Program-made: the position numbers and the translations under genes | Shown: positions 16,781 to 59,388 of the stretch, in pieces | Numbering within the stretch: position 1 is the stretch's first letter | How the letters are laid out: each line of letters opens with the position of its first letter | The notes under the pieces: generated by a model | Told to the model about the DNA's origin: nothing | What the model saw: only the letters and a program-made list of their open reading frames with translations | Databases searched by the model: none | Source of the DNA: Xylographa opegraphella | Lineage: Eukaryota | Length of the DNA: 64,000 nucleotides | NCBI GenBank assembly: GCA_022813865.1 | Contig: JALDZX010000009.1 | Span: 248,001-312,000 of the forward strand | Direction of reading: 5' to 3'

Positions 16781-17527
16781 ATGCAGTACTCCAAGATCGC
16801 TTTCCTCGCCGCCTTGGCTGCTCCCCTCGTAGCTGCCCAGGACCTGTCCGGCCTGCCGTCGTGCGCTGTACGTTGCTGCATTTGATCCACCCATTCGTTA
16901 TGCGACTTCTGACTTTGATCCCTCCAGTTGACGCCTGCCATCAGTGCTCTCAGCTCCACCGGCTGCGCTCTGACCGACGTGGCGTGCATTTGCGCCGACA
17001 CTTCCTTCCTGCATTCCCTGCAGACCACCGTGGAGGCAGTCTGCAGTCCGGCTGACCTGACGAGTAAGATTGCTCCTCGCTCAATCGTGGCCGTGCGGCA
17101 GATTCATTGACACCTTCGTGCAGAGGCCCTCCAGTTCGCGCAAACTCTCTGCCTCAGCGCCGGTGTTACGTTGACCGTCGCGACGCCCTCTGCGCTCGCA
17201 CCAGCCACGACCCCGGCTGCAGCGTCGACCACTCCCATGATGACCACCACCGCCATGGCATCGACCACCATGACCACCACCATGCCCATGTACTCCTCCT
17301 TGACCAGCGCCATGATGTCCAGCAGCGCCATGATGTCCAGCGCCACCCCATCATCCGCCGTCATCGTGTCCGTCATCTCCGATGGCCAGCCTCAGGTTCC
17401 CACCAACGCCACCACCCTCGCCTCCGCCACCATCACCCCCTTCCAGGGCGCCGCCGCCACCAACAAGGCTCAATTCGCCGGCGCCGCCATGCTGATGGGT
17501 GCCGTGGGTGCCGTGTTCGCTTTGTAA
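16781..17527 (+). CDS. Secreted CFEM-domain, Ser/Thr/Met-rich, probably GPI-anchored cell-wall protein with one PIR repeat (3 exons)
   Basis: Exons 16781-16867, 16928-17063, 17124-17527 give a signal peptide MQYSKIAFLAALAAPLVAA, CFEM LPSCA..GCALTDVACIC..VCSPAD..LC, PIR-type VISDGQPQ and a hydrophobic GPI-type tail. Confidence 0.9.
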
Positions 17528-18388: not shown

Positions 18389-18504
18389 GGTGCTGGACTG
18401 TGGAGGATTAGTGGATGGTTGGGAAGGGGAGATGTCTGCTGCTGTTGTTGTTGTTGTTGTGTGGAGGATATTGGGGGGNGGTGATGGGGCTTTTATATAG
18501 TGAG

Positions 18505-19976: not shown

Positions 19977-22077
19977 ATGACTCGAATCACGCCTCGAACT
20001 TGTCTCTACCCTCTCACTGGTAGTCTCCTTCTCACCTTCACTCTCTCCATCGCACTCACCTTCCGTTCTGACCACTACTGTTATGCTGGCACCTGTGGCG
20101 AATGGCTCTTCCCCCTCCAGGCACGACTACACGTTGTGGTATGGTACTTCTGGGTCTCCATCTCTGTCGCTTTCCTCGCCGTGCGCGCTTTTCACCCGCA
20201 GCTGCGGCGCTTCCTTGTACGGCCTGTGCTGGATCGCAAACTTCTACTACTGGGCAAACGTCTGACGATTAGCGGGCTATTGGCTTTCATATCGGTTGTC
20301 TCACTCTACGGTATTGTTGTCGGTATCTGGTGGATCAGGTTGAGAGACTACTTTGAGGCACGCGGTAGCGCCGCTGGTGTTTATGAGGGGAACAAGCGTC
20401 TCGCAGCCATTGCCCTGACCGGTCATTTTTGCGACATCACTATGGGAATGGTCTTGATTCCGATTTCTAGACATAGCGCACTGGCCTCATTTTTCAAGCT
20501 TTCCGTGTCCACGACGCTTGCTTTTCACATGTTGATTGCATATACACTCTTCACTCTGGTCCTTTTGCATGCATTTCTTTACGTGTCGTGGATCCCTGTA
20601 TTCGAAAGTCTTTCGCAAAATCTTCGGATGGTTTACCCGATCCTGAACCCTACATATCTATACAACGAGACCTGGCCTGGCAATACTTCTCCATTAGGGG
20701 TCTGGCGCGCTTCTCTGATATTTACCGGTCTCACGGCTACCACAATAATTTGCCTAATATTCCTCACCACGCTACCTAGAATTCGAGGAAAGCATTTTAA
20801 CTTATTCTACTTCACTCATCTTCTAAGTATCGTGGCCGTTATCGTTATATGCCTCCACGCAAGCACGATGTTCTACTGCACAGCTCCTGGACTCGTCATG
20901 TGGGTCCTCGATTGGGGCATGCGACTGTATGAATTGAGGAAGAAATTGGATGGCAAAGTCATACACTTGGGAAATGGGTGGTACAGGTACAAACCATTTA
21001 CGATTATCCGGTCCAATGCAAACTGGCTAACAAATACCAAGCTTGATCTTGGGACTTCCTCGACACCGTCTCGACGGCTGTGCGTGCAAATCCCCACTGG
21101 CTCATTTCTACATACATCATGCCGAGTCGTCAGTACGAGAGCTCCATCCATTCACGACCATCACCCATCTCGCGTCCCAGAACAGGCTTACCCCTCCAAC
21201 GGAAAACGATCTGCCGGTACAGTTTCTCTTCCGTAAACGCGGTATAGCGACCGCTTCTGGAACCACGCCTAAGAAATATGCATGGATATCAGTGCTCAAT
21301 TTCTTCAGTATGAGACTGAAGCCATCTTTTCAATGGACGGACAAGCTCGCCGGCCTGGCTGACCGCTCTTCATCCATACCAGAAGATGTCGAGAAGATCG
21401 CATTAGACCGTTCAAGCTTGACACCCCGATCTGGTCAATTGCAAACCAGCAATATCGACCAAGCCCAGCCCGTGGCAATGGTAGACATCGGCCTCCGCCT
21501 TGAAGGCCCATATTTTACCCCAGCCGATCCTTCGCGTTATAAGACAGTCATCTGTTTCGTCGCCGGTACCGGTGTCAGTGGGGCGATCGCCATAGCCGCC
21601 GCATTCATCGATCTCAAGAGGCAGCAAGTGGCCGTCCAGAAAGAATATACTTCGTCGAATACCAAAGAAGCGTTATCCGTGCCCGCTTCATGCTCGTCAT
21701 CGAAGTCGTCCGCCTCGAGTACATGGCAACGCTGTGTTGTTTTCTGGAGCGTGCGGGCCGACGATTATGTCGAGCTACCCTTTTTCAACGGTAATTTCCT
21801 CGCTTCAACCAAGAGTTTCTTTCATGCGTTCCTTGACCAGGCTAATAGCTTCGACTTCTCAGACCCTTCCGCCTCACTCGAACTCCGCATCCACCTCACC
21901 GGCAAAGACCGGCCGCGACTTGACGTCGCCGAGGCCCTTGCGTCCATATGCAACGAGATGCCGGGAGGCTCAACTTGGTGTTACCTTTCCGGCCCCAACG
22001 CCTTCATCGCTGCAGGCGAGGCGGCGTGTAAATCCCGCCCAGGAGTGGACTTTTATGGGGCCAGGTGGGATATATAA
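19977..22077 (+). CDS. Ferric reductase-like transmembrane oxidoreductase (FRE/NOX superfamily)
   Basis: Heme His pairs (FHMLIAYTLFTLVLLHA; THLLSIVAVIVICLHA), FAD motif HPFT, NAD(P)H motifs EGPY and VAGTG; introns about 20987-21041 and 21791-21861. Confidence 0.9.
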
Positions 22078-25505: not shown

Positions 25506-27217
25506 TCACGCTTTCGCTTCCGCCTCAGCCAGCGCCTCGGCATAGGCGTCGGCATAGGCTTCGGCATAGGCGTCCGCGGAGCGCTGCATGTGGTGGTGGT
25601 GCCCGGCGCCGTGTTTGGCATCACGTCTGTGGGACAATAATATTAGCGAATGTCCGGTCAAGGTTGGTCGAAGAGCTAGGTGTCGTACTTCTGGGGAGCG
25701 TCTGGAGCGGCAGCGCCGGGTGCACCTCCACCTGGGGGTCCGCCGCCCATGCCGCCTGGTGGGCCTCCTCCCATGCCACCAGGGGGGCCTCTGCCCATGC
25801 CGCCTGGAGGGCCTCCCATCATACCGCCTGGAGGGCCGCCAATCATACCGCCTCTACCGCGGCCGCCCCAGCCACCTCTGCCACGGTCACCGCCGCCTCT
25901 TCCACGGTTTGCATCTCGTCTGTAGTGAAACACTGTCAGTGAAAGTCTGCGGGAAATGGTCGAAGAGCGATCGTACTTCTGAGGAGCGTCTTGTGCGCCT
26001 CCGCCTGGTGCACCTCCACCTGGCGGTCCTCCGCCCATGCCACCAGGGGGCCCTCCACCCATGCCACCTGGTGGGCCTTCTCCCATGCCACCTGGAGGAC
26101 CTCTCATCATACCGCCTCTACCCTGGCCGCCCCAGCCACCTCTTCCGCGGCTACCGCCGCCTCTTCCACGGTTTGCATCACGTCTTGATCAGCATCAGTG
26201 TGAGCGTTCGACAGAAGAGAATGCAACAGCGTACCTGACATGGTTGTGGTGTGCGCCGCCGTGTGCTGCTCCGCCGTGGAAGGCTTCTGCGTAAGCGTCT
26301 CGTCTGAAGAAGAGAGACGTTAGCATATATATGTACGATGGGATTTCAGGTGAGCTTACTTTGACGGTGGGGGTCCTCCGCCCATGGCTCCCATCATTCT
26401 CCCACGACCACGATCGCCGCCTCCGCCTCCTCGTCCACCGCCTCGTCCACCGCCAAATGGGTAGCCTGCTTCGGCGTCGGGGTATGCATCGCGTCTGGAC
26501 AAAAGTCAATGGACATCAGTCGGTAGCGCTGACAGTGACAGTGTCTCACTCTTGGTGGTGGTGGTGGTGGGGGTGATGGCCACCAGATCCGTGTCCATCT
26601 CCGCCGTGGCTGTGGAATGGTTCCGCATCACGTCTAACCACATGTCAGCCAATGTTCGGTAGTTTTGTTGTGAGAATATTTTCTTTACTTGTGGTCGTGA
26701 TGATGAAATCTACCTTTACCACCGTAGCGTGCTTCAGCGTCGGCCACTGCTTCCGCCTCCGCTTCGGCCTCTGCTTTTGCTTCTGCTTCTGCCTCTGCTT
26801 CTGCCTCTGCCTCTGCTTCTGCCTCTGCCTCTGCTTCTGCCTCTGCCTCTGCTTCCGGCTCCGCTTCCGGATAAGCTTCTCGCCTTCCAAACAAGTCAGC
26901 ATGCAAGTCTTCATGGTAAAAGACCAGTAAAACTACTTGTGATGTGCTTTTCCTCTCTTAGCGTCGGCGTCGGCGTCGGCTAAAGCTTCTCGTCTTCAAA
27001 GGTGTCGTCAGCAAGAAAACCCTCAACAGTGTCATAGGTGGACCTACGCATGGTGCTTGTGAGCATAGGCCTCTGGGTATGCGTATGCTTCAGCCTCAGC
27101 TAATGCATCCGCATACGCTTCTGGGTAGGCTGAAGGATCGGCCCAGGCCAGTGGGTTTGCGATCGCAACAGCTGTGAGAGAGAGAAAGGAAAGGACGACG
27201 GCACGTGAGAAATACAT
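25506..27217 (-). CDS. Secreted Kex2/Ste13-type polypeptide precursor (KEP-like), about 422 aa, 9 exons, His-rich and Gly/Arg/Met-rich peptide units
   Basis: Exons 27217-27048, 26993-26937, 26883-26689, 26633-26550, 26494-26360, 26303-26235, 26183-25977, 25919-25689, 25626-25506. All introns are GT..AG, 51-62 nt, with CTRAY branch sites. Signal peptide MYFSRAVVLSFLSLTAVAIA; KR/RR/AR/ER followed by EA/DA/YP/EP dipeptide runs. Confidence 0.88.
25627..26183 (-). repeat. Tandem duplication of an exon+intron cassette, with internal GPPGGM minisatellite
   Basis: Exons 7 and 8 both encode RDANRGRGGGxRGRGGWGG...(GPPGGM)n...DAPQK; the introns following both begin GTACGA and contain GCTCTTCGACCA. Confidence 0.9.
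26750..26870. repeat. Coding 6-bp microsatellite (GARGCA)n encoding a long (EA)n spacer
   Basis: Plus-strand runs of TGCCTC/TGCTTC. Confidence 0.9.
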
Positions 27218-29817
27218 GGTAAGAAAGAGATTGATGACGTGAATGAATTTAGAGGAGTAGTAGTGGAGAGAAGAAGCAGACGGTCTGTATCTCCAGTATG
27301 CTTCCAAGTGTGCTTTTAATGCTGAATAGGACCAAGGGGGAAGCCCTAGGATTTATACTGGTGTAGGAGATATGCTCTCCGTGGATACATCTTGATACAA
27401 CAAAAATTTCACAAACAGTTTGTTTCAATTCATTGATACTGCACTCTCCACGCCATTCCGTTCAATGCCCCAACAGGCGTGTCATTAGTGAAGGTCGATC
27501 AGGCGTGATTCATGGGTTTGTGGTTGGTGACCCAGGTTTCGGTCGAGAACAGAGCGGGCATGCAGAAAAGACAACATATGACATCCGTACATTGGGCTAG
27601 AGCAGACAGGAATGGACGCCGTGGCTGGCAGGGTCCGTGACGCCTTGAGCCATACGCGTTACTCGTTGCCGCGAAGTCCCAACGAGTAACAGACCTCAGA
27701 AGCGGGAGTATCAGTGGCGAGGCACAGTATGGTGCGGTTGACAGCCTCCACATTCAGTTGACGATGTGGTAGCCAGAACCAAGCATACCTCATTGATGTG
27801 GTCTAGTGCCCGGTTGGGTAGTCTAGTCGTAGGCCCACGCGTAGTCTTTCGAAACAAACAAGTAATATTTGGGAGAGATGTATCGTGTGTTAGGTCCACA
27901 ATCTTGAACGTTGAAAGACATAATGAGGACAAGCTCGAGCTTTTACTATGATGACTCGTGGGCTTGAGCGTTAGCGGGAAGGCAGCTAGACAGTCCCCTA
28001 AAGTGCTGCCTAATAGTTGAACTTGATACCATGCAGATCCCCCCCGGACGTCCATCGCGGCTGGGTTTCCAGGGGGATGGTCAGCCCCTAAACCGTTGCG
28101 TGATCCCGCCCGCCCGCTTTTAATGCACGAGGGTGGGGACGCGCGCATGTTGTGGATTCTTGCGTAATTCCAACATCTCCTCCACCTCAGCAGGGCCAGA
28201 CGGAGGCTGGGACTGCGACCCAAGACAGGGTGTACCAGATATTGCTGCATGACAATCACGTCTCCAGCCTCACACGGCCGAGGCCTGTACTCACTCGTGC
28301 CACAGCATCAGACCAAGATAACAGATCGGACAGCAAGTACGCCGCAACATGTCCCCCAAAATCTTCGTCCGATGTCCCACAGGCACAGTCTATACGACCT
28401 GAAGAATTATGTACTGGATTCAATGAGCCTGTTGATCCTTACAATGCGAAAAAGCACATGGTGGTAGTGCAGGCATGTGTAACTTGAGGCTGCGTAAAAC
28501 GAAGATCCTGCCATGATTTATTTCATATGAGGGTCTACCTGGTACCGCTCACGCACGACATCGGTCCTGTAGCAAGATTTGGGTGAGCAGTGGTCTAGAT
28601 CACCGCACCTGTGCGGCGTAACGGGGTCGCCTCATGCCTGTCTATCCACGTATCTACAGTGCACAGCATTCGCAAGATGCATGCCGTATTCAGCATAGCG
28701 TTCACTCATGATTTTATTCTGTTGCTACATTTTTCTGGATCTTATAACCACTGTATCTCCTTGTCAGTCTTGATATCCCAGTCCAAGCTGTTTCGCCATG
28801 TGCTCATGTTATGACCCCGTTGCCTTATTGCTCCACTTCATCCTCTGGAGCTGTTCTCAAACAGAAAGTGTCTTCCCAGACGGGCTCCACCATTGTGATA
28901 AGAAGAGCAACTATGTCCAGGTACTCGAGACACGTCCAAAGCACGCAATTTAATGCTACTCTGTATACAATACCCCGGTAAGTTTGTCTCGTTCGCCTGA
29001 AAGTCTCCAAGCAAATCCCGCTGTATCTATCGTCTTTGTCCTTGCTTTATATCCTACTCCGCAAGTATTGGATATACTGCCGCGTCAAGTCAGCATGATA
29101 ATATACTCAACTCTCCCTCTCGTGCGTGAAGAGCTTTCCGTCTGAACGATCAAAACCATTAATCGATGCCATCTTATACCTGACACAACACTCGGTGCAA
29201 TATGTCACGATCAGAGTCTCCATGGCCCAAACCTCTTCTCTGTCAGTCCTACAAATCAATCCGCCCCACTCCCCTATACCGTCCCTCTAAGAGCTGTGCT
29301 CAATACCCGAGATCCAAGCACTGAACTCCCTCTGCTCTCAAACGACCAGAGCAAGGCCCCAATCCGCGTCCTGGTAGATAGCCAGGCTTTTCGGCTCGAG
29401 GCTGCTCTCTACAGTAGACGCCGTGGTGCTGGCGACGATGACACAGTATCCTAGCTTCTAAGCGGTGAGAAAGGCGAGAAAGAGGAGGTGGCAGATGGTA
29501 GCAAGATCCGGCACTCAAGCAACGTTTGGCAGTTCAAAGATTCACAGGTCCAAGCACCCATATCTCAGCAGCACCGGCGCCTTAGTGATTTGCCATGATG
29601 TACAATTAGAAGCTATGTATTGCCCGACGGCGCCGTCGCCTGTATCGCGTCTATCTATCGAAACAAGAGTCGTAACATCGTGCTATCCAGATCTATCCCC
29701 GCTTCGAAAACCACAAAAAACGCCGTTATGTATGCTTGCCCCACCCGCCATGCTTATGCTTTTCAACCCTTAGACCCGTCTCTCGTACAGCCACCACGGT
29801 GCCAACGTCAGCAGCAC

Positions 29818-56965: not shown

Positions 56966-57574
56966 TCATCTGCGCATGCCCATCTGACCGCGGGGTGCAC
57001 GACGCGCGTGGTCGTGGAGGGAGCGCGCGTCGTTACCGTGTGCGCGTGCATGGGCGTGAGCTGCCGCATCTCTCTTGGACGCGGTCAGGTTGGGGCAAAG
57101 AGTCATGGTCAAGTCCGAGCTCGACTCGCACACGGCAGTGGCCCAGTTGTCCTCGGGGAGCGTGTAGGCAGCGTGACAAGATCCTTGGCCGGCAGGGCAG
57201 GTGACTTCGCGGCAGGCTGACTCCGATGGGACGAGTGCAAGGCCGTCGTCGGAGAATGGGAAGCCGTTCACGTTGGAGACGTCGTACCAAAGTTGACTAC
57301 CGTCCAGGGTGTATTCGAATTGCGTGATGGTGTCCTCGTTGCCGAGAGCCGTGGAGATTTTGATGGAGATGCCACCGCCCTCGGAACGGGTCTGGTACTC
57401 TTCCTTGTATGGCTTTCCGTGCGGCTCAATGGTGACCATCTCACTGGAGCTGTCCCCGACAGACCAAAGATACACTGGGTAGGCACATTCGTTGTTGACT
57501 ATGGCCGAGCTTGCTTGAGCATTTGAGGCGAAGGCTAGCACTGCTGCCAACGCGCTGATCTTCGTGAACTGCAT
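56966..57574 (-). CDS. Secreted Bys1-family (thaumatin-like fold) protein with His-rich C-terminal tail
   Basis: Signal peptide MQFTKISALAAVLAFASNAQA; AIVNNECAYPVYLWSV, GGISIKIS, TQFEYTL..LWYDVSNVNGFPF, AYTLPED. Confidence 0.85.
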   Translation of the reverse strand: MQFTKISALAAVLAFASNAQASSAIVNNECAYPVYLWSVGDSSSEMVTIEPHGKPYKEEYQTRSEGGGISIKISTALGNEDTITQFEYTLDGSQLWYDVSNVNGFPFSDDGLALVPSESACREVTCPAGQGSCHAAYTLPEDNWATAVCESSSDLTMTLCPNLTASKRDAAAHAHARAHGNDARSLHDHARRAPRGQMGMRR

Positions 57575-59388
57575 GATGAGAACTGGAAAGGATCGTGATG
57601 GTCTTTTATATTGTAATTTGATTCGATGCGCCGGGCTTGATTCGTAGAGTATTGGTCGCGCAAATGAATATATATAAAGGGGCGAGCGAATAAAGACTTC
57701 CAGAAGTAGGAGAGGGGAATTGATCTCGTGAGAGAATGAGTAATGCTGTATGAGCAAAGGAGTGTGAGTTAGATGGCAATGGCACAATGAGTGTGGCCTG
57801 CAGTGAATGAAAGACTGATTGTGATAGAGGACAAAGGAGGAGACTGGGCGCACCATTCCTTTATCCCCTCGTCCCGTGGCAGACCAGCCTAGCGATCAAG
57901 ATTTTCCTCCGCTTCCATTCCAATTCATGATAATTGGACGAACATGACGCGAGAAGGGTTTAGCCAGGGGTGTCCGAGCCGTCTGGCGGCAGATCCCCGT
58001 TCTGACAAGGTTATAGCGTCGGTAGGTTGGAAAGCCCACTCACGAACAAGGCCCCAAAGGTTGCCTACCCCTGTCGTAGGCCCTCGCGCCCGAACCGTAC
58101 CTGATCCTTGGGCTGCGCCCAGTCGGAGGCCTGCAACGATCGATGCCGCATGCAATTCGTGGCAGACAATGGCGTCCATGTGTCGCGAGTCGCGACAACG
58201 ACAACTTCAGTGGTTCGCTAAGTGGTCAAGCCATGGAAGCGCAAAGGGAATGGACAGCGCACGAGTCTCTACTCTGCAACCAAATATTGAAGGCTCCCAA
58301 CCGAGAAAGTCTTTCACTTTTTGGACGGTTCACACATGGTTGGCATATCGAAAAGGCATGCGCTGCCGCGGTTCCTGTAATAAGTGGGCCGGGCCCACAT
58401 GCTCCGTCGACTCCGCTGACGTTAAGATTTGCTATTTCGTCAAGTCATAACGGTTCAACGGCGCGAGCCGGCTCCTGTTGGGAGTTGATCTCCCGCTGAT
58501 GTTCTCCGATCCCACCCTTCCTACCGGCGTCGAGCTTTTCAGTCGGTAAAGCCTTTCGGAGGATTTGCTGATGGGCGATGGCCCGGGGAGAGTGCCGTAA
58601 TAGGGTTGCTACCACTGGCTATTATCAGACCAATCATATTTATCTCTCATACTAAAACAGATCCACTTGACACTTCACATGAAATGTACGCAGTGGGAAG
58701 CACATCATGTGAAGTCGCACAAAACAGCGGCAATTTGAAGGCCTGTCAATAGCACCGTGGAGATCCATACCTTACAAATAGGAAAACTTCAAACAATCGG
58801 CCAACGTTTCCACAATCTTTCATGACAAAGTGACGCAAAGCGAGTTGATGGCATGCACATTCATCAGAAAATACGGAATAGAGGGCGCCTGAGCCAACGA
58901 GCTGACAACGCATATTGGCGACGCACCTTTATCTTCAATCGTGGCCAATGATTCCATAAACATAACTCATTGGACAAGAGACACCAAGGGATTTTCCACT
59001 CGCAGTAGGACAGTCATATGCTCGCGCACAAGGATGGCGGTCAGGAAAGATGTTCCAATTGTGCTTCCACCCACCAAAAGGCTGTGCAAAAGCGTGAAAG
59101 GCCTTTGTATGAATTTTCTAAGTAGGTCGTGCTGAGAACTACCGAGCAAGCTGAGATGTGCTGGAAACCACAGCATGCATGTTCAAAGCTACGCTTCTAC
59201 GCGAATTGTTCGTCCCGAAAGACTAAATTTTGACCTCATTTGCGTCATTTGTGTAACTTGAATCCACAAGACCTGTTGTTTGGATATTTTGACGCCGATG
59301 AAACACAGCATTCAGCAGCGCTGAGCTGTCCCGACATCTGCCTATTCGTCTTCTGTCTCTTCCTTTCTAAGCACATCACTCTCAAGCC

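Follow-up and report, generated by a model that had tools for sequence, protein, structure and literature searches.

The pro-part of promelittin, reportedly described by Kreil et al. in 1980, is said to consist of X-Ala/X-Pro dipeptides only, which are removed stepwise by dipeptidyl peptidase IV; the precursor holds one cargo peptide and no dibasic sites between units. Fungal precursors of the α-factor type and of the KEX2-processed repeat protein (KEP) type combine a signal peptide, several peptides flanked by Lys-Arg or Arg-Arg, and the signature of the dipeptidyl aminopeptidase Ste13. As set out in the available text of PMC6339444, KEPs are processed by Kex2 cleavage after the dibasic site, Kex1 trimming of basic residues and Ste13 removal of X-Ala/X-Pro dipeptides, and the available text of PMC9769878 reports Ste13-type-trimmed KEP products seen by mass spectrometry. 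Bee apidaecin and ant hymenoptaecin precursors share this design: in the part of PMC3415428 at hand, an RR or KR site, an EAEP-type spacer and a cationic peptide are repeated, the same three maturation steps are proposed, and the several exons of the apidaecin gene each code for a different peptide. Here we describe a minus-strand gene in a stretch of 64,000 nucleotides from Xylographa opegraphella (contig JALDZX010000009.1, positions 248,001 to 312,000; hereafter the window, numbered from its first letter), which shares the flanking sites and the Ste13 signature, starts with a predicted signal peptide and carries His-rich cargo. The gene model and the processing logic that it implies are well supported, and the locus is best read as a real, lineage-restricted gene encoding a secreted multi-peptide precursor.

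Splicing by script joined a 422-codon open frame from an ATG at 27217 to position 25506. The six His-rich units that had been listed in an original prediction for this region were all present in this single spliced minus-strand frame, where they hold all 29 His of the protein. The features of the locus, with exons taken from the scripted gene model and spacers and units from a parse of the spliced protein, are as follows.

25506..27217, minus strand: whole gene, nine exons and eight introns, 422-aa protein.
27343..27352, minus strand: TATA-like box (TATAAA, −135, about 130 bp 5′ of the ATG), from a motif scan of 1200 bp upstream.
27217-27048, minus strand: exon 1.
27158..27217, minus strand: signal peptide, residues 1-20, predicted cut after Ala-Ile-Ala (read by eye).
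27062..27157, minus strand: N-terminal pro-region, 16 consecutive in-register X-Ala/X-Pro dipeptides.
27050..27061, minus strand: His unit 1, 4 aa with 3 His, then Ala-Arg across intron 1.
26993-26937, minus strand: exon 2.
26939..26992, minus strand: exon 2 cassette, consisting of Arg, five X-Ala dipeptides, an internal Lys-Arg and His unit 2.
26939..26953, minus strand: His unit 2, 5 aa with 2 His.
26883-26689, minus strand: exon 3.
26730..26879, minus strand: exon 3 spacer, made of 25 X-Ala/X-Pro dipeptides in register, most of them Glu-Ala.
26691..26729, minus strand: His unit 3, 13 aa with 4 His and 3 Arg/Lys.
26633-26550, minus strand: exon 4.
26552..26617, minus strand: His unit 4, 22 aa with 10 His including a run of five, preceded by Arg and two dipeptides and followed by Glu-Arg.
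26494-26360, minus strand: exon 5.
26362..26466, minus strand: Gly/Arg unit A, 35 aa with 5 Arg, 3 Met and no His, preceded by four dipeptides.
26303-26235, minus strand: exon 6.
26237..26281, minus strand: His unit 5, 15 aa with 5 His, preceded by Arg and three dipeptides and followed by Arg-Arg.
26183-25977, minus strand: exon 7.
25979..26173, minus strand: Gly/Arg/Met/Pro unit B, 65 aa, a tandem duplicate of unit C.
25919-25689, minus strand: exon 8.
25691..25909, minus strand: Gly/Arg/Met/Pro unit C, 73 aa (from the parse and the exon 7/8 alignment).
25626-25506, minus strand: exon 9.
25584..25616, minus strand: His unit 6, 11 aa with 5 His, preceded by Arg and one dipeptide and followed by a single Arg.
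25509..25580, minus strand: C-terminal tail, 12 X-Ala dipeptides, the register being kept right up to the stop codon.

All eight introns are GT-AG introns of 51-62 nt in phase 2, with a CTRAY-like branch element near each 3′ end, and they resemble the one intron that could be placed, by means of a full-length homologue, in the neighbouring ferric reductase gene (about 57 nt, GTA...CTAAC...AAG). Every one of them falls after the second base of the codon preceding an Arg, the P1 residue of a predicted cleavage site. Exons 1-8 end with two bases that belong to the next P2 codon (AA in five cases, and GC, GA and AG in one each), and exons 2-9 each open with one base, Arg, and then Asp-Ala or Glu-Ala. 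Because the codon before the P1 Arg is split in phase 2 at every intron, each exon amounts to one processing cassette. The 11-nt junction motif AGACGNGAYGC occurred six times in the 64-kb window, all at exon starts of this gene, against an expectation of 0.23, and a count of six was reached in none of 100 shuffles. The seven internal exons (57, 195, 84, 135, 69, 207 and 231 nt) are all multiples of three, so that skipping or duplication of an exon would be expected to keep the frame and rebuild an x-Arg site.

The protein contains 103 Gly, 81 Ala, 36 Pro, 35 Glu, 32 Arg, 29 His, 16 Met and no Cys, with almost no Ser/Thr for glycosylation and no glycosylphosphatidylinositol (GPI) signal. Its start resembles a signal peptide, with Arg at position 5, a 14-residue hydrophobic core and small residues at −3 and −1, and the dipeptide register begins exactly at residue 21, with His unit 1 directly after the 16 dipeptides. 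Ten x-Arg sites were found (six Lys-Arg, one Arg-Arg, and one each of Ala-Arg, Glu-Arg and Gln-Arg), and the in-register dipeptide runs after them number 5, 0, 25, 2, 4, 3, 1, 1, 1 and 12. At nine of the ten sites an acidic X-Ala or X-Pro follows directly and the register holds to the first core residue; only the Lys-Arg inside exon 2 departs from this. The Glu-Arg site is one base away from Lys-Arg (GA-A versus AA-A in the same split codon). The Ala-Arg and Glu-Arg sites had been described beforehand as non-canonical for Kex2. The Ala-Arg in front of unit 3 is not necessarily cut at all, since its Arg is the first residue left after the 25 dipeptides. The DNA of this exon 3 spacer is a hexanucleotide microsatellite (period 6, 18.3 copies, 26743-26852), and its Pfam match to the PARP EP-repeat lay far below the cutoff and reflected low complexity only. 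By hand count the precursor has 56 Asp and Glu versus 44 Lys and Arg, and each core is neutral to cationic before His is counted.

Between the spacers and sites lie nine cores, six of them short and His-rich and three Gly/Arg units. The six His units total 70 aa, of which 41% are His, and they include the run of five His in unit 4 (at 26569) as well as a run of four. Five of them align on a Gly-x-Gly/Ala-His-His-x-His pattern, and this shared pattern makes the His units look like diverged copies of one cassette. After removal of the dipeptides, three of the six would start with X-His and one with His-Lys-His; in a fifth unit the first His comes at position 4, and the sixth has none near its N-terminus. 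The predicted trimming would thus expose His at position 2 or 3 in four units, but since the units are 30-75% His, this placement would often be expected by composition alone. The proposed resemblance to histatins and shepherins stands as a matter of composition and not of homology, unit 4 having matched no Pfam family and, in a sequence search, no PDB chain at E<=1. The three Gly/Arg units, which the original prediction did not mention, make up the other half of the cargo: they span 173 of the 422 residues, contain no His and, by hand count, hold 14 of the 16 Met.

Exons 7 and 8, each taken with the intron after it, are tandem duplicates. The two exons are identical at 176 of 207 aligned bases (85%), with one 24-nt indel, and the two introns at 38 of 57 (67%). 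Of the 31 exon differences, 4, 7 and 20 fall on codon positions 1, 2 and 3, and the changed codons comprise 15 synonymous and 10 non-synonymous ones; the third-position excess is a signature of purifying selection in this frame. Intron 7 (25920-25976, minus strand; 57 nt) is itself in frame and stop-free, and its retention would give a read-through protein still with Arg-Arg sites. On the plus strand, a stop-free open reading frame (ORF) of 222 aa (25570-26238) lies antisense to exons 6-9 and exceeds any sense ORF there, so that ORF-based callers would probably prefer it, which may be why protein libraries hold no sense-frame exon 7/8 protein. When the 164-aa read-through of exon 7, intron 7 and exon 8 was searched by phmmer against 1,835,955,588 representatives, three matches had E<=0.001 and none E<=1e-10; the best (E=4.5e-5) and the other two were to Gly/Met/Pro low-complexity stretches of unrelated proteins. 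A search of the ESM Atlas with exon 8 gave no usable match.

Relatives were found through exon 1. Among longer proteins (99-2000 aa) 928 candidates gave no match at E<=0.01, and among proteins of 30-98 aa seven candidates gave two matches, P0124 (93-96% identical) and P0125 (73-78%). The sequence P0126, in the same 90% cluster as P0125, is MMC13_002528 (MCJ1473873.1), a partial (113 aa) hypothetical protein of the lecanoromycete lichen fungus Lambiella insularis, in which the signal peptide and first 12 dipeptides are about 73% identical to those of the window gene. A signal-peptide-like N-terminus was kept in all three. Within the first 12 dipeptides, the Ala/Pro position was invariant among the relatives at 11 of 11 ungapped dipeptides and X varied at 4 of 12, and the sole indel relative to P0124, the closest relative, is exactly one dipeptide in exon 1. 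This evolutionary evidence suggests that the X-Ala/X-Pro register itself is under selection. The exon 3 spacer, lying on an 18-copy microsatellite, is likewise likely to be variable in length.

The Lambiella protein is a true relative with the same cassette grammar. A first core and a second are separated by Gln-Arg and Asp-Ala; Lys-Arg and two dipeptides then lead to a third core, which begins aromatic-His-Ser, and Ala-Arg with six or seven dipeptides leads to a Gly/Arg/Trp unit. The read-through ORF P0125 suggests that the first two cassettes of the Lambiella protein lie in a single exon. Its last two have the order of window exons 4 and 5: the aromatic-His-Ser N-terminus is common to window unit 4 and the Lambiella unit in the same cassette position, and the Gly/Arg/Trp unit stands at the position matching Gly/Arg unit A. 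Non-basic P2 residues occur at sites of both species, always followed by X-Ala, which suggests that the Arg and the next dipeptide are what matter. The relatives keep the dipeptide register and the cassette order and not the cores; unit 1, for instance, is replaced by an unrelated core in P0125 and P0126. Searches of Pfam gave no family at E<=1 for exons 3-5 and 8, bar low-complexity matches far below cutoff, none at E<=0.01 for the ORFs holding exons 1, 6, 7-8 and 9, and nothing above cutoff for P0126. Residues 8-50 of P0126 had a sub-threshold match to GEO12453p1-like (PF22861; E=0.023, 16.2 bits versus a cutoff of 32.2), which is probably compositional. As judged from these searches, the family, seen in the window gene, Lambiella insularis, P0124 and P0125, is uncharacterised.

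To place the gene among known precursors, we compared it with the KEP definition given in the available text of Le Marquer et al. (2019, PMC6339444), namely a signal peptide without a transmembrane segment, at least four KR/RR fragments, and at least three similar fragments covering at least 15%. In-silico cleavage at KR/RR yielded eight fragments, and the Ste13 signature, X-Ala or X-Pro directly after the dibasic site, was seen at nine of the ten x-Arg sites. Only two fragments, those of exons 7 and 8, are near-identical, and the third Gly/Arg unit and five His units share loose patterns only, which makes it doubtful that the gene would pass the three-repeat rule of the KEP pipeline. Whereas KEPs have three or more near-identical repeats, this protein has two core classes and nine different peptides, very long spacers (up to 16, 25 and 12 dipeptides), three sites with non-basic P2, His-rich cargo, one cassette per exon and uniform phase-2 introns. 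In the available texts of the KEP papers PMC7329392, PMC6339444 and PMC9769878, the word "intron" occurs 0, 0 and 1 times, respectively, and the term "histidine-rich" was not found. We found no description in the literature of fungal His-rich peptides from a Kex2/Ste13-type precursor, although subscription journals and supplements may hold one. Repeat-based KEP screens and ORF callers would tend to miss such genes because of the heterogeneous cores and the longer overlapping antisense ORF.

Plants, insects and human saliva are known sources of linear, His-rich secreted peptides that lack Cys, and two shepherins derive from one precursor. Shepherins I/II and histatin 5 share with the present units a linear, Cys-free, Gly- and His-rich or His-rich composition; by contrast, shepherins have regular Gly-Gly-His repeats whereas the units here end in His clusters, and the sources are plant and human. 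According to the available part of PMC10004757, shepherins are Gly/His-rich antimicrobials with Zn synergy, and the activity of shepherins and histatins is linked to Zn and Cu. The insect precursors differ from ours in kingdom and in cargo, which is Pro-rich or a 97-aa Gly-rich peptide, and their antibacterial activity has been demonstrated whereas the present peptides are candidates predicted from the gene. No exon had an apidaecin or hymenoptaecin match in Pfam and the exon 7-8 phmmer search returned low-complexity matches only, so the likeness to the insect multipeptide precursors is best seen as one of design, not of descent. Unlike promelittin, the window precursor has several cargo peptides and several dibasic sites between units. 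Taken on these comparisons, the gene appears to encode a heterogeneous, exon-modular Kex2/Ste13-type multi-peptide precursor with His-rich cargo, for which we found no α-factor, shepherin, histatin or apidaecin homologue.

A route to mature peptides can be proposed from the sequence grammar and its conservation, and its logic of signal peptide, dibasic cleavage and dipeptide trimming is strongly supported. By analogy with the α-factor and KEP pathway, a Golgi Kex2-type protease would cut after Arg, a Kex1-type carboxypeptidase would trim basic residues and a Ste13/dipeptidyl peptidase IV-type aminopeptidase would remove the X-Ala/X-Pro spacers stepwise. The products would be nine peptides, namely six short His-rich ones of 4-22 aa and three long ones of the Gly/Arg(-Met/Pro) kind with 35-73 aa, and the acidic spacers would neutralise the cationic cargo until release. 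Because the carboxypeptidase removes basic residues only, Ala would be left at the C-terminus of unit 1 and Glu at that of unit 4. In the most speculative step, the cocktail would act outside the cell against microbes or to control competitors, assisted by pH and metal, in the manner of shepherin/histatin and glycine-rich peptides. With moderate confidence, we favour this reading as a whole, that is, a secreted multi-peptide precursor with Kex2/Kex1/Ste13-type maturation that releases a metal-assisted antimicrobial cocktail; its functional part, metallophore or antimicrobial, we infer from analogy, metal-assisted antimicrobial peptides being our best guess. The interpretation originally offered is partly supported: anatomy and conservation speak strongly for the processing of a precursor to short His-rich peptides, and the putative metallophore or antimicrobial function is weakened by the loss of the only ATCUN-type (amino-terminal Cu/Ni-binding) start in the closest relative.

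Several observations weigh against the favoured reading. The signal peptide call was made by eye; at three of the ten sites P2 is non-basic, so that cleavage there may be poor or due to another protease; and of the relatives, P0124 and P0125 come as plain ORF calls and P0126 as an incomplete model from the submitter. The His cores are poorly conserved where the relatives show them: in P0124 unit 1 reads His-Lys-Asn-His, which abolishes the sole X-X-His start, and the Lambiella cores are His-poor, with 1-2 His. Antimicrobial activity is argued from an analogy of composition and precursor design, and the peptides are not amphipathic. Finally, none of seven Zn-, Cu-, Fe- or pH-responsive patterns occurred in the 1200 bp upstream, and an Ace1-like pattern was present once, against 1.05 expected; this is a weak result with no positive control, as the patterns are those of other fungi and that for iron is missing from the whole window, the ferric reductase promoter included.

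Metal handling could instead be the primary role, the His-rich peptides, and perhaps the Met-bearing Gly/Pro units, binding Cu, Zn or Ni outside the cell as scavenging metallophores or as a buffering or detoxifying sink. The density and runs of His, the three X-His starts and one X-X-His start predicted after trimming, the aromatic-His-Ser start common to unit 4 and the Lambiella unit, and the concentration of Met in the Gly/Pro units are consistent with such a role. According to the available parts of the sources, free X-His (PMC11591581) and X-Z-His (ATCUN; PMC10515390) N-termini, with His at positions 2 and 3, respectively, bind Cu(II), and motifs that combine His and Met deal with Cu(II)/Cu(I) on the exterior of the Ctr1 transporter (PMC9117721, PMC8867124). 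At a distance of 4-9 kb there are genes for a ferric reductase and for a CFEM-domain protein, and the sole named relative comes from a lichen fungus, lichens being noted metal accumulators as far as the source at hand goes. However, a CRAL/TRIO gene separates these two genes from the precursor gene, the direct neighbours are this CRAL/TRIO gene and a RabGAP gene with no uptake transporter or receptor gene adjacent, and Met is spaced one per 8 residues and not as MxM or MxxM. The upstream region and the changes in P0124 and Lambiella described above also speak against metal handling as the primary role, which we see as a serious, if less likely, alternative. A structural role is less probable still, and we regard it as unlikely: the Gly/Arg/Met/Pro units, or the unprocessed disordered protein, would serve as matrix, coat or adhesive, as does Ustilago Rep1, whose Kex2-derived peptides form amyloid-like fibrils in the available account (PMC9769878), and the His units would be by-products or cross-linking points. 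This view draws on the 173 residues in three very Gly/Pro-rich low-complexity units, on units B and C being the sole near-identical repeats and under purifying selection, and on a Gly-Gly-Trp-Gly-Gly/Gly-Arg element being the only core feature common with Lambiella. It sits poorly with the lack of a GPI signal and of Cys and the near-lack of Ser/Thr, and it leaves five short His-rich cassettes with a common pattern unexplained.

Two further explanations would assign the gene to known classes of fungal peptide precursor, and we consider both very improbable. [quoted passage not shown] But no DUF3328/UstYa, tyrosinase, methyltransferase or P450 match was found by Pfam among the 160 scanned ORFs of the 64-kb window, a scan that took 160 of the 164 stop-to-stop ORFs of at least 100 aa (the other four being plus-strand ORFs antisense to the precursor gene) and that could miss exons shorter than 100 codons. 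The cores, moreover, are heterogeneous with no repeated short motif, and six strings of this protein were not found in three supplementary files of Umemura 2020. The reading as a RiPP cluster was rejected on the ground that no modifying-enzyme gene occurs among the scanned ORFs. An α-type mating pheromone or other signalling-peptide precursor is, if anything, harder to accept. A signal peptide with Lys-Arg and X-Ala/X-Pro is the classical α-factor signature, and most ascomycete KEPs that bear it are taken as pheromones in the available parts of PMC6339444 and PMC9769878, but the window protein has nine different low-complexity cores of 4-73 aa, not copies of one 9-13 aa peptide, and the Pfam searches of its exons, at the thresholds given above, returned no α-factor match. 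That there is no gene at all, merely a chance open frame in GC-rich low-complexity DNA, is scarcely credible to us. Low-complexity repeats are present, the antisense ORF over exons 6-9 is longer, and no sense-frame exon 7/8 protein appeared among 1.84 billion representatives beyond the three low-complexity matches; against this stand the eight phase-identical GT-AG introns, the enrichment of the junction motif, the third-position bias of substitutions, and the conservation of exon 1, with its register, in three other sequences.

Elsewhere in the window, a CFEM-domain exon (16928-17065, plus strand; Pfam CFEM E=5.4e-7) is followed by a Ser/Thr/Met-rich ORF (17111-17524, plus strand) with a hydrophobic GPI-like end and a weak PIR-repeat match. 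The ferric reductase gene (19977-22074, plus strand) lies about 2.4 kb downstream of these ORFs (16928-17524), and the CFEM-domain gene and the ferric reductase gene look like an iron-uptake-type pair. The ferric reductase ORF had no match at 100%; its best matches stand at 85-92%, and those in named organisms, at 69-76%, are scattered among Penicillium, lichen-associated fungi and Leotiomycetes, so that the link to Lambiella comes from the precursor gene. A single N stands at 18479, among overlapping ORFs without a Pfam match. A Bys1-domain gene (Blastomyces yeast-phase-specific protein family) occupies 56969-57895 on the minus strand, and a Lys-Arg-Asp-Ala word in a minus-strand frame at 57076 could be a pro-peptide processing site. 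No other KEP-like gene was found in the window, where the 21 dibasic words followed by [DE][AP] in six frames comprise nine in the precursor gene and scattered singles.

In summary, the gene shows in clean natural form how every exon can carry a single processing cassette, and the peptides, if real, are easy to synthesise and to test for metal binding and antimicrobial action. Going further, one may speculate, and we hold this to be no better than a tentative idea, that in a lichen-type fungal lineage there arose, separately from the bee apidaecin gene, a "peptide cocktail" gene of exon-modular design, in which each symmetric phase-2 exon would be a complete cassette of Arg, acidic dipeptide spacer and core, in which duplication, loss or skipping of exons would re-mix the secreted set without breaking the frame or the sites, and in which the His-cluster and Met-bearing Gly/Pro cargo would form an extracellular Cu/Zn-handling or metal-armed antimicrobial system. 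If true, the cocktail could control bacteria or the algal partner, or help on metal-rich substrates. The family may help to explain how fungi of the lichen type deal with metals or with microbial partners.

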